Made by a program: the position numbers and the translations under genes | Shown: piece by piece, positions 3,199 through 38,364 of the stretch | Position numbering within the stretch: position 1 is the stretch's first letter | How the letters are laid out: the number at the start of each line of letters is the position of its first letter | Notes under the pieces: model-generated | The model's database searches: none | The model's input: the letters and a program-made list of their open reading frames with translations, nothing else | Told to the model about the DNA's origin: nothing | Source: Escherichia coli O157:H7 | GTDB taxonomy: Bacteria; Pseudomonadota; Gammaproteobacteria; Enterobacterales; Enterobacteriaceae | Direction: 5' to 3' (one strand) | DNA length: 64,000 bases | Assembly: GCF_013167455.1 (NCBI RefSeq) | Contig: NZ_CP038328.1

Positions 3199-5130
3199 TC
3201 AAATGGGGCGGATACTGTCTTCATCCAGCTCCGCATCGAAGAACCGACGCAGGGTCTGAATATTATTATCCGCAATAATGGACTCGCGCGCCTGCGCAAG
3301 TTTTTCTTCGTATATCGCCTGACGCCACTCCAGCGGCGTACGCACCGCGGGATTATCATCTTCAACTATAGTCAGTTCAACCGTTGAACCTTTTAACATG
3401 CTCAACGCTTCAGCCAGTTTTTGCTGTGCACCGCGGTTGTTCAAATGCCGCTGAGAGGAGCGCAAATGCAGACATACTGCGTTGTCGCTCTCCTCTTTCC
3501 AGGCATTTAACGCCACCTGTTCGACCAGTTTTGGTAGCGAAAGTTGACTCACCTGAGCCGCCCACGCGTCGCGCTCAATGGCTTCTGCCGCCAGCTTCGC
3601 CGCCAGTTCCGGCGTTTTTTCATGTTCCAGCGCTTTTTTCAGCGCCTTCGGTGTGGCGACCACTTCTTTTTGCTGCATCACTGGAGTGGTCGCCTTCCAG
3701 CGATACGCTTCTTTTTTAGCTGGCGCTTTTTCCAGCGCCGATGGCACCGGACGCGCCTGAACGCGATCGGTGACCGAAGCCAGTCTTTCCAGCGCAGCGT
3801 TATTCACCGGCCGCGCGCGGGTAGCGGCTGCCGGTTCACTCTTTTTTGCTTTGGTTGCTCCCTGCACGCGCTGCAACTGCTGGCGCGCCGCCAGCACCTG
3901 GCTGGTGGTTTCCGGGAGCGGTACAGTCGGTGCCTGCTGCGGCGCTGATTGCGGTTGCGGCGGCACCTGGGTTGGCGTCATTACTGCCGTTGGCGCGACG
4001 GGTGCAAAGGACTGGCGTGGCACTTCTGGCTCAGGCAGCGGCATACGCGGATGGAACGCCAGCGCGCGCAGCAGCGTCATCTCAACGCCCATGCGGCGGT
4101 CCGGCGCATACGGTAATTCTTTGCGACCAATCAACAGCGTCTGATAGTAAAGCTGAATATCCGTCGGCGGTATGGTGCGCGCCAGTTCACGCATCCGCAG
4201 CTCGATGGCGGCCATGTCGTTGCCAAGTGCAGCAGGCGAAAGTTGTACCATCGCAATACGATGCAACAGGCCGAGCATTTCCACCAGCAACGCTTCCCAC
4301 TCGATACCACGGGCAGCGGCTTCATTAATCAGCGCCATTACGCGCTCGCCGTTGGCCTCGACCATCGCTTCAACCAGCGACAGCGCCTGATCGTCGTCAA
4401 GCGTACCCAGCATCGCACTGACCGCCTGGGTTGAAACCTGGCCGTCACCGCTGGCAATCGCCTGGTCGGTCAGACTTAAGGCATCTCGCAGGCTGCCTTC
4501 AGCGGCGCGCGCCAGCAATTGCAGCGCCCGCGGCTCGTGAGCGATATGTTCTTCATTGAGGATGTGCTCAAGTTGATGACGAATTTGCTCGACATCCAGC
4601 GCCTTGAGATGAAATTGCAAACAGCGCGACAAAATCGTCACCGGCAATTTCTGTGGATCGGTCGTCGCCAGCAGAAACTTAACGTGCTCCGGCGGCTCTT
4701 CAAGGGTTTTTAACAGTGCGTTAAAGCTGTGGCGCGACAGCATATGCACTTCGTCGATGAGATAAACTTTGAAACGACCACGCGCCGGAGCGTACTGGAC
4801 GTTATCCAGCAGGTCGCGGGTATCTTCAACTTTGGTGCGCGAGGCGGCGTCGATTTCAATCAGATCGACAAAGCGCCCCTGCTCGATTTCACGACAGTTA
4901 TCGCACACGCCGCACGGCGTCGCGGTAATGCCGGTTTCGCAGTTTAGCCCCTTCGCCAGCAGTCGGGCGATAGAGGTTTTTCCGACGCCACGGGTGCCGG
5001 AAAAAAGATAAGCATGATGAATACGCCCTAACGACAAGCCGTTCGCCAGTGCGGTCAGCACATGTTCCTGGCCGACGACGTCAGCAAAGGTTTGTGGGCG
5101 CCATTTTCGGGCTAAGACCTGATAACTCAT
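3199..5130 (-). CDS. dnaX: DNA polymerase III subunits tau/gamma, 643 aa (tau)
   Basis: MSYQVLARKWRPQTFADVVGQEHV..., AAA+ Walker motifs; internal frameshift site present. Confidence 0.97.
   Translation of the reverse strand: MSYQVLARKWRPQTFADVVGQEHVLTALANGLSLGRIHHAYLFSGTRGVGKTSIARLLAKGLNCETGITATPCGVCDNCREIEQGRFVDLIEIDAASRTKVEDTRDLLDNVQYAPARGRFKVYLIDEVHMLSRHSFNALLKTLEEPPEHVKFLLATTDPQKLPVTILSRCLQFHLKALDVEQIRHQLEHILNEEHIAHEPRALQLLARAAEGSLRDALSLTDQAIASGDGQVSTQAVSAMLGTLDDDQALSLVEAMVEANGERVMALINEAAARGIEWEALLVEMLGLLHRIAMVQLSPAALGNDMAAIELRMRELARTIPPTDIQLYYQTLLIGRKELPYAPDRRMGVEMTLLRALAFHPRMPLPEPEVPRQSFAPVAPTAVMTPTQVPPQPQSAPQQAPTVPLPETTSQVLAARQQLQRVQGATKAKKSEPAAATRARPVNNAALERLASVTDRVQARPVPSALEKAPAKKEAYRWKATTPVMQQKEVVATPKALKKALEHEKTPELAAKLAAEAIERDAWAAQVSQLSLPKLVEQVALNAWKEESDNAVCLHLRSSQRHLNNRGAQQKLAEALSMLKGSTVELTIVEDDNPAVRTPLEWRQAIYEEKLAQARESIIADNNIQTLRRFFDAELDEDSIRPI
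3841..3847 (-). promoter_or_regulatory. dnaX programmed -1 ribosomal frameshift heptamer A-AAA-AAG (codons 429-430), giving gamma ending ..KKE-stop
   Basis: Plus strand CTTTTTT at 3841-3847; minus-strand reading GCA AAA AAG AGT GAA gives AKKSE, and the -1 frame gives GAG TGA; GC-rich hairpin just downstream on the minus strand (about 3808-3838). Confidence 0.85.
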
Positions 5131-20026: not shown

Positions 20027-20380
20027 CTATTCGTCGATGATTGACTCGAATCCGCCATAGATCATTCGCTTGCCGTCAAACGGCATGGACTCGCCGAACT
20101 CTTTCATCCGTGGGTCCGACATCATCTTTTGATTAGCTGCGTCGCGGACCTCTTTTGAAGGGTATTCAATCCAGCTAAAGACAACCTCTTCATTCTCTTC
20201 CGCTTTCACCGCCATACGAAAATCGGTCACTTTGCCATCCGGTACATCGCTGGCCCAGCATTCGACAATACGAAGCGCGCCAAACTCTTTAAACAATGGC
20301 GCGGCCTTAGCGGCCATTTCCCGATAGGCATCCTTTTTATCGGCAGGAACGGCAACCACAAAACCATCAACATACTTCAT
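20027..20380 (-). CDS. ybaA: DUF1428 protein YbaA, 117 aa
   Basis: MKYVDGFVVAVPADKKDAYREMAAKAAPLFKEFGALRIVECW.. Confidence 0.85.
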   Translation of the reverse strand: MKYVDGFVVAVPADKKDAYREMAAKAAPLFKEFGALRIVECWASDVPDGKVTDFRMAVKAEENEEVVFSWIEYPSKEVRDAANQKMMSDPRMKEFGESMPFDGKRMIYGGFESIIDE

Positions 20381-20490
20381 CAGACATACCTCCGAAGCGT
20401 ACTGCGCAGCCAGACAATTCTTGCGACGTCAGTTGTGGTTAAAGTTTAGTCATGTTGGGATTTTTTGACGAAACGGTGGGAGGCAGAAAT

Positions 20491-20604
20491 GGGTGGGGGC
20501 CCTGCCAGCTACATCCCGGCACACGCGTCATCTGCCTTGGCTGCTTCCTTCCGGACCTGACCTGGTAAACAGAGTAGCGTTGCGGGAGAACCAACAGAGC
20601 CCCC
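20491..20604 (-). ncRNA. ffs: 4.5S RNA (signal recognition particle RNA), 114 nt
   Basis: Minus-strand sequence begins GGGGGCTCTGTTGGTTCTCCCGCAACGCTACTCTGTTTACCAGGTCAGGTCCGGAAGGAAGCAGCCAAGGCAGATGACGCGTGTGCCGGGATGTAGCTGGCAGGGCCCCCACCC; lies between ybaA and atl as in E. coli; terminator hairpin and A-run on plus strand at about 20461-20490. Confidence 0.93.
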
Positions 20605-20680
20605 ATTGAGAGCGTTGAGAACCAACGCGCAGGCGCATTATCACTGCTGCCCCGGCTAATTGCAACCCATTGCGTGCCAG

Positions 20681-21070
20681 ATGCTGGTTTCTTGCGCAAT
20701 GCGGCTTCACTCGGGCGTTTTTCCAGATTATGCTGAAAAATTATCTCAGGAAGAAAAGATGGAAAAAGAAGATTCATTTCCCCAACGCGTCTGGCAAATC
20801 GTAGCCGCTATTCCCGAAGGGTATGTCACCACTTACGGTGATGTGGCGAAACTGGCGGGATCGCCCCGCGCCGCGCGCCAGGTTGGCGGTGTGTTAAAGC
20901 GTCTCCCCGAAGGCAGCACCTTGCCCTGGCACCGGGTGGTTAATCGCCACGGCACCATTTCGCTAACCGGACCGGATTTACAGCGTCAACGACAGGCATT
21001 ACTGGCAGAAGGTGTGATGGTATCGGGAAGCGGGCAAATCGACTTACAGCGCTATCGCTGGAACTACTAA
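20681..21070 (+). CDS. atl: alkyltransferase-like DNA-binding protein Atl (YbaZ), 129 aa
   Basis: Internal start MLVSCAMRLHSGVFPDYAEKLSQEE..; methylguanine methyltransferase-like DNA-binding fold with the active-site Cys position not conserved. Confidence 0.85.
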   Translation: MLVSCAMRLHSGVFPDYAEKLSQEEKMEKEDSFPQRVWQIVAAIPEGYVTTYGDVAKLAGSPRAARQVGGVLKRLPEGSTLPWHRVVNRHGTISLTGPDLQRQRQALLAEGVMVSGSGQIDLQRYRWNY

Positions 21071-38177: not shown

Positions 38178-38260
38178 AGAGCTCTCTCTTAGTTTAATTT
38201 CCGCCAGGTAATCAGATGACACGACTGTGCTTCACGCCATCTATTAACATGTACGTCAGT

Positions 38261-38289
38261 ATATGGGGATGTTTCCCCCACATTCAACG
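38261..38289 (-). promoter_or_regulatory. sigma32-type promoter upstream of lon (-35 TTGAATG, -10 CCCCATAT on minus strand)
   Basis: Minus-strand GTTGAATGTGGGGGAAACATCCCCATAT about 85-110 nt upstream of the lon start; clpX terminator hairpin GGGGAG..TCCCCC nearby at about 38312-38331. Confidence 0.6.
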
Positions 38290-38364
38290 CCGAGAATAGA
38301 GGAAAAATTAAAGGGGAGATAAAATCCCCCCTTTTTGGTTAACTAATTGTATGGGAATGGTTAA

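Follow-up and report, generated by a model that had tools for sequence, protein, structure and literature searches.

The minus strand at positions 20381-20680 can be read in two ways, and the question raised by this locus of Escherichia coli O157:H7 was whether it encodes a small protein, as two long open reading frames (ORFs) would suggest, or the 4.5S RNA of the signal recognition particle (SRP). Within the window, that is, the whole stretch of 64 kb that was analyzed, the locus was studied for the identity, structure and conservation of the RNA, for the consensus and conservation of its promoter, for a hairpin in its leader and for the conservation of the ORFs. The best explanation was that 20491-20604 (minus strand) is ffs, the single-copy gene for the SRP 4.5S RNA, with the expression and processing already described for it, and that the 112-aa and 60-aa ORFs are non-coding frames open by chance. 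We give this reading a probability of about 0.98. The coordinates of all of the features are collected in Table 1.

Table 1. Positions of ffs, its control and processing elements, the overlapping frames and the neighboring genes (window coordinates unless a locus is named)
Feature	Position	Strand	Basis
ybaA (DUF1428), downstream neighbor	20027..20380	-	Pfam PF07237, E 2.3e-48; RefSeq
Spurious 112-aa ORF, ATG start; runs from the atl start (antisense) through promoter, leader and body of ffs and 52 nt further	20439..20777	-	ORF list
First 3' trailer bases AUUU, directly after ACCC	20487..20490	-	Conservation
Probable att core, empty: last 21 nt of ffs plus 4 nt, TAGCTGGCAGGGCCCCCACCCATTT in ffs sense	20487..20511	.	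Direct repeats elsewhere
Mature 4.5S RNA (ffs), 114 nt, GGGGGCUCUG...GCCCCCACCC	20491..20604	-	K-12 identity and fold
RF00169 Bacteria_small_SRP match, equal to the RefSeq ffs bounds	20500..20596	-	97 nt
Spurious 60-aa ORF, GTG start; in another sense frame, covering the promoter and the first two thirds of ffs (5' side)	20528..20710	-	ORF list
Domain IV apex ACCAGGUCAGGUCCGGAAGGAAGCAGC	20540..20566 (RNA positions 39-65)	-	Read from sequence
GGAA tetraloop	20549-20552 (RNA positions 53-56)	-	Sequence and fold
4.5S precursor 5' leader, about 24-26 nt	20605..20630	-	Transcription start from PMC7967276 and fold
Leader hairpin, 6 bp	20612-20628	-	-8.2 kcal/mol, z -3.6
ffs promoter: -35 TTGCAA (20665-20660), 17-nt spacer, -10 GATAAT (20642-20637)	20637..20665	-	Promoter scan
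atl/ybaZ (MGMT-family DNA-binding protein), divergent upstream neighbor	20759..21070	+	Pfam PF01035, E 2.1e-27; RefSeq
Copies of the 25-bp repeat	L125 17768-17792 and 48940-48964; L135 24337-24361 and 35124-35148		Extracted loci

Identity and structure of the 4.5S RNA

The original prediction had recognized the 114-nt 4.5S RNA gene ffs at this locus, and this was borne out both by a covariance model and by alignment. When the whole 64-kb window was scanned against Rfam at gathering thresholds, three matches were obtained, among them RF00169, which lay on the minus strand inside the interval put forward for this check (20480-20610). The match scored 68.1 bits against a gathering score of 40 (E 5.5e-13) and covered model positions 1-97 of 97 without truncation. 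The mature RNA was placed by reading the strand against the canonical 4.5S RNA (GGGGGCUCUG...GGCAGGGCCCCCACCC), and it was identical to ffs of K-12 MG1655 at 114 of 114 nt. The leader, the promoter hexamers, the 3' flank up to +44 and the neighbors atl, ybaA and pdeB were also the same as in K-12; the difference amounted to four substitutions in the surrounding 400 nt, none of them within the gene. Over these 400 nt the window was 100% identical to several O157:H7 chromosomes.

Of 5426 complete E. coli genomes, 5424 had a match to ffs, which in 5420 of them reached at least 99% identity; two genomes filed as "complete" had none. The lowest, the median and the highest number of copies per matching genome were all one, which is what an essential gene would lead one to expect. 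Two of the matches in this collection sit on records labelled as plasmids. Only four E. coli genomes were less than 99% identical in ffs, one of which, EC77 from bovine milk (locus L123, 301-417), has a 3-nt insertion, CTC, after RNA position 30 that makes the RNA 117 nt long.

The isolated 114-nt RNA folded as one long hairpin (-57 kcal/mol, z -3.15), in which the last four bases, ACCC, were left unpaired as a 3' overhang. Its domain IV apex carried a GNRA tetraloop together with the internal-loop sequence, a motif cited as critical to the binding of Ffh (PMC7967276). A pattern of the 22-nt domain IV core, with 20 fixed bases, matched at least 120 diverse bacterial genomes, and the stem closing the tetraloop covaried (UA in seven sequences, CG in four, GC in two and AU in one).

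The remainder of the hairpin was assessed by comparison. RNAalifold, applied to 14 proteobacterial sequences, predicted the apical two thirds of the hairpin, with compensatory changes in 16 of 24 pairs. When the minimum free energy structure of E. coli was laid on 10 gammaproteobacterial sequences, 92.2% of the cells were paired vs 38-50% in controls in which the partners were slid by 1-3 columns, a comparison that favors the observed structure to some degree since it was derived from E. coli, one of the aligned sequences. In the same 10 sequences, changes on both sides were found in 24 of the 48 pairs, against 5-12 in the slid controls, and none of 500 shuffles reached any of the observed values in the pair-count measures. 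The RNA was thus found to be a single elongated hairpin of the 100-115 nt class, with compensatory changes and no Alu domain.

This architecture was compared with the known SRP RNAs. The family RF00169 (clan CL00003) shares the single extended hairpin, domain IV and the GGAA tetraloop; its model has 97 nt, and the mature RNA of E. coli is 8 nt longer at the 5' end and 9 nt longer at the 3' end. The RefSeq/PGAP feature, labelled "ffs: signal recognition particle sRNA small type", takes the Rfam bounds and falls short by these same 8 and 9 nt, so that annotation from the Rfam model under-calls the mature 4.5S RNA by 17 nt. Large-type bacterial SRP RNA has an added Alu domain. The domain IV core pattern was also present in Bacillus, Neobacillus and Paenibacillus, the large type being exemplified by the 271-nt scRNA of Bacillus subtilis. 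In contrast to the large type, the RNA of the window is a short hairpin of the kind whose maturation depends on RNase P and RNase T, whereas the large-type scRNA is reported to be cut by RNase III from a 354-nt precursor (PMC1935012).

The gene is already known, stands in textbooks and is annotated in reference genomes, and the present copy departs in nothing from that of K-12. It is essential, and few bacterial RNAs have been studied for longer. Domain IV is the part of the 4.5S RNA that contacts the M domain of Ffh; the assembly of Ffh with FtsY, and then the activation of their GTPases, is promoted by the tetraloop and by the hairpin's distal end, and ribosome-nascent chain complexes are thereby delivered to the insertion machinery of SecYEG or YidC. 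Since the RNA of the window is identical to the molecule studied in K-12, the same function in targeting by Ffh and FtsY would be expected here: the apex of the mature hairpin, with domain IV and its GGAA tetraloop, would bind Ffh, and the resulting particle would deliver ribosomes making inner-membrane proteins to the receptor FtsY. For the binding of Ffh and FtsY and for essentiality, as for the processing by RNase P and RNase T treated below, the account draws on the literature or on deduction from it.

The overlapping open reading frames

Both minus-strand ORFs described for this locus were reproduced at their exact coordinates. The alternative that they raise is that the 112-aa ORF, or the 60-aa ORF, is a genuine gene, the locus having a dual function as an RNA and a small protein. 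Both frames are intact in O157-like and K-12 strains of E. coli, including the window, and a few deposits list a hypothetical protein; an undisrupted frame within the species is nevertheless what a DNA identity of 99% leads one to expect. The evidence given below weighs so heavily on the other side that we regard a genuine protein gene as highly improbable and already largely refuted.

The search for relatives returned no protein family. Neither ORF had a Pfam match at E values up to 1, unlike the products of the flanking ybaA and atl, which matched strongly, and no CDS over ffs was seen in the RefSeq records inspected or among the matches listed. The exact 112-aa sequence was not found in a collection of 15 billion proteins. 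As deposits, the 60-aa ORF appeared once, as the hypothetical protein EFER_2561 of E. fergusonii ATCC 35469, and the 112-aa ORF appeared at 97% identity as WRSd3_03293 of Shigella dysenteriae, with relatives in records of Klebsiella pneumoniae, Enterobacter hormaechei and a Caudoviricetes metagenome bin. Among 5.8 billion protein clusters only 37 small ones, of 63-193 aa, resembled the 112-aa ORF; most of them shared only the 38-73% of it that is templated by ffs, and the few with a name were called hypothetical.

The position of the longer ORF also argued against its expression. Its ATG is found upstream of the ffs promoter, in DNA whose other strand begins atl, and the known ffs transcript therefore lacks it. 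The sequence GGGGAA stands almost directly against this ATG, a spacing that makes it poor as a ribosome-binding site. All four of the substitutions that separate the 400 nt of the window from K-12 were nonsynonymous in the 112-aa frame.

Outside E. coli the frames did not persist beyond the part templated by ffs, as was seen in sequences of Salmonella, Klebsiella, Enterobacter, Proteus and Providencia taken from 15 listed records filed as plasmids, most of which are megabase-sized or otherwise large replicons. In Salmonella the 112-aa frame was cut to 53 aa and started inside the leader; in Klebsiella and Enterobacter both of its termini were unrelated; and in Proteus and Providencia it met a stop inside ffs, four codons upstream of the domain IV core. 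The 60-aa frame measured 49, 42, 86, 65 and 56 aa in the relatives, with varying termini. In 115 diverse genomes, the median stop-free span of the 112-aa frame, counted relative to the conserved domain IV core, was 30 codons. For neither ORF, then, was the frame conserved beyond the constraint imposed by the RNA, and neither had a family or a curated annotation. The judgement that the 112-aa ORF is spurious was upheld by the missing Pfam family, the missing RefSeq CDS and the lack of conservation outside the segment templated by ffs; under the reading of the locus as ffs, both ORFs would have arisen by chance in G+C-rich, stop-poor DNA that codes for an RNA.

A further statement of the original prediction, that a protein-only annotation would call a hypothetical protein here and miss the RNA, held in part. 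Such calls were indeed deposited, as EFER_2561 and WRSd3_03293, whereas current RefSeq/PGAP annotation carries ffs. The warning is justified historically, and current RefSeq handles the gene correctly. The locus is in this respect a worked example of a stable-RNA gene that yields long stop-free frames, from which callers relying only on ORFs deposited hypothetical proteins.

Two entries derived from ffs were filed as viral. P0015, an 86-aa hypothetical protein from the Caudoviricetes metagenome bin, shares 75% identity with the spurious ORF. OR845144.1 (locus L131, 308-441) is a 9-kb contig, unverified and named as "Escherichia phage", in which ffs is complete. The latter was considered as a phage carrier of ffs and rejected: the record is marked UNVERIFIED_ORG, has low coverage and no annotation, was the sole match in the phage collection and is most likely host DNA. 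Both entries look like host DNA carried into viral bins.

Transcription, processing and neighborhood

A promoter scan of 20300-20850 found a single promoter-like site, the minus-strand TTGCAA/17 nt/GATAAT of Table 1, with a G+C-rich discriminator, GCGCCT, 3' of the -10 hexamer. By differential RNA sequencing, the transcription start of ffs had been mapped 26 nt upstream of the annotated 5' end (PMC7967276), that is, at 20630 of the window, so that the GATAAT hexamer occupies -12 to -7. Both hexamers and their spacing were kept in Salmonella, Klebsiella and Enterobacter, and a GATAAT or CATAAT box was retained in Proteus and Providencia. Transcription from about 20630 would accordingly depend on this site as a sigma-70 promoter.

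The leader of the precursor contained a short hairpin, which was found in the same place in all six of the Enterobacterales compared as well as in Vibrio and Pseudomonas, 6-8 nt before the mature 5' end across the genera. Its stems differed in sequence (GCGUUG/CAACGC, GCGUUAG/CUAACGC, GUCUUA/UAAGAC and UGCUUU/AAAGCA), and it follows from the constant position and the differing stems that the structure of the leader is conserved and its sequence is not. On the MAFFT alignment of the leaders only 60% of the cells were paired, because the leaders cannot be aligned in register; the hairpin was revealed by folding each leader singly. The leader of the window also repeats GTTGGTTCTC, which is present again at positions 10-19 of the mature RNA. 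The 4.5S precursor is processed by RNase P (PMC7049720), which would remove here the hairpin-bearing leader of about 26 nt.

The intact and conserved promoter and leader, the identity with the K-12 gene in the same atl-ffs-ybaA-pdeB context and the single matching place per genome make it extremely improbable that the working ffs lies elsewhere and that the copy matched here is decayed or a non-functional duplicate, a view for which no support was found.

At the 3' end, the junction ACCC|ATTT was kept in five of the six Enterobacterales (Escherichia, Salmonella, Klebsiella, Enterobacter and Proteus), and the flanks diverged beyond it. Trimming by RNase T halts at CC and leaves a 4-nt ACCC overhang (PMC3439924), in agreement with the four bases left unpaired in the fold; RNase T would likewise trim the extra 3' bases of the present transcript back to this overhang. 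The original prediction spoke of ffs "with its terminator", and this part was not confirmed: the consensus scan of 20300-20850 found no canonical intrinsic terminator, that is, no G+C-rich stem-loop with a run of T right behind it, in the 110-nt spacer that separates ffs from ybaA. The only minus-strand match of the terminator scan, at 20613-20599, was discarded as a terminator for ffs because it straddles the 5' end of the RNA. When the precursor was folded together with its trailer, only long-range pairing, and no hairpin with a U run, was seen in the spacer between ffs and ybaA. The 4.5S helix and the short U-rich AUUU stretch may themselves end transcription, exonucleases then trimming the product back to ACCC. 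If the helix were its own terminator, the 3' ends of primary transcripts would lie at or within a few nt of ACCCAUUU. The conservation of AUUU would fit a role either in termination or in 3' trimming.

The gene order atl-ffs-ybaA-pdeB was common to the window and K-12, and the MGMT-family or ybaY side of ffs was retained in most of the genera examined. In Salmonella (locus L126, 451-1030) ybaA is missing and a gene with an EAL domain directly follows ffs, and in Providencia (locus L130) ffs lies between ybaY and hha. The transcripts of ffs and atl are divergent and overlap by 65 bp (PMC7967276), an arrangement that could suggest that what is conserved here serves chiefly the atl mRNA, in cis or as an antisense element, and is not an RNA gene of its own. 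According to the same study the transcription of atl is negligible and Ffs is abundant (PMC7967276). The covariation, moreover, follows the minus-strand hairpin and the Rfam model, and the RNA is conserved amid different neighbors, as with the ybaY and hha of Providencia. A feature of atl is hence, in our estimation, even less probable than a protein gene, and the reading as an independent ffs gene is retained.

Some further observations concern the rest of the window, which was collinear with O157:H7 strain PV15-279 but for 14 substitutions and one 27-nt indel. The latter corresponds to 27 nt at about 153-180, between adk and htpG (CGAGATAATTTGCGGAAAGTGCAGATA, read by eye), which are present in the window and absent from PV15-279. 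A full-length match to RF02029, the sraA sRNA, was obtained at 38249-38344 (plus strand, 106.7 bits), between clpX and lon and antiparallel to both; among the RefSeq features of the matching O157:H7 record there is no RNA gene at that position. The DnaX programmed ribosomal frameshifting element (RF00382, 96.8 bits) was matched at 3802-3866 on the minus strand, inside dnaX, and is a sequence feature in RefSeq. The gene espY3, for a type III secretion effector with pentapeptide repeats, is located at about 60009-61580 between pgpA and yajO, as converted from 494815-496386 of NZ_AP018488.1; its insertion into a window otherwise made of core genome is typical of O157 and related pathotypes.

Integrase islands next to ffs

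In two E. coli genomes an island occupied the space beside ffs. In NZ_CP151161.1 (strain 20220828076, a human isolate) a 31.1-kb island extends from directly after ffs to ybaA and carries resistance genes with IS26 on their flanks, namely OXA-1, aac(6')-Ib-cr, catB3, arr, qnrS2, floR and a partial class 1 integron. The island of NZ_CP180604.1, from a cat isolate, has 10.8 kb and no resistance region; it codes for an integrase, a HigB toxin, an ImmA/IrrE protein, a resolvase and hypothetical proteins. Each of the islands opens with a tyrosine integrase gene adjoining ffs (Pfam PF00589 in NZ_CP151161.1), and both are bounded by a perfect 25-bp direct repeat, TAGCTGGCAGGGCCCCCACCCATTT, which extends to 29 bp in NZ_CP180604.1. 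This sequence occurs once in the window, and the site there is therefore empty.

From these data, the 3' end of ffs (20487-20511) is probably also an empty attachment site for a small family of tyrosine-integrase islands that enter the spacer between ffs and ybaA and, on insertion, restore the RNA's 3' end, the island of one clinical strain having probably grown into a 31-kb multidrug-resistance island. The island integrase was carried by only two genomes in the E. coli collection. For the 400-bp region 20381-20780, the best match covered less than 80% in 64 of 5424 genomes, and 58 records matched it in two places; integrase islands were considered as the cause of all of these some 58-64 split regions and discarded as such, only two genomes carrying that integrase.

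Sites in tRNA and tmRNA genes are the classical examples of integration at the 3' ends of stable RNAs. The site at ffs resembles these, and the site of phage phiEf11 in the ffs of Enterococcus, in that the end of a stable-RNA gene, on its 3' side, forms part of the att core; as at the tRNA and tmRNA sites, the copy brought by the E. coli island restores the end of the RNA and the tyrosine integrase gene adjoins the RNA gene. It differs from them in that the site of the window is empty and the islands of E. coli are integrative elements, of about 11 kb, or of 31 kb where IS26 resistance modules were gained, and not complete phages. The integration of a phage into ffs of E. faecalis was reported in 2025 (PMC12540744), and a check of the open-access literature, which was not a thorough one, found no account of an island at ffs of E. 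coli. Of everything seen at this locus, only the integration of islands at the 3' end of ffs in E. coli may be worth a short follow-up.
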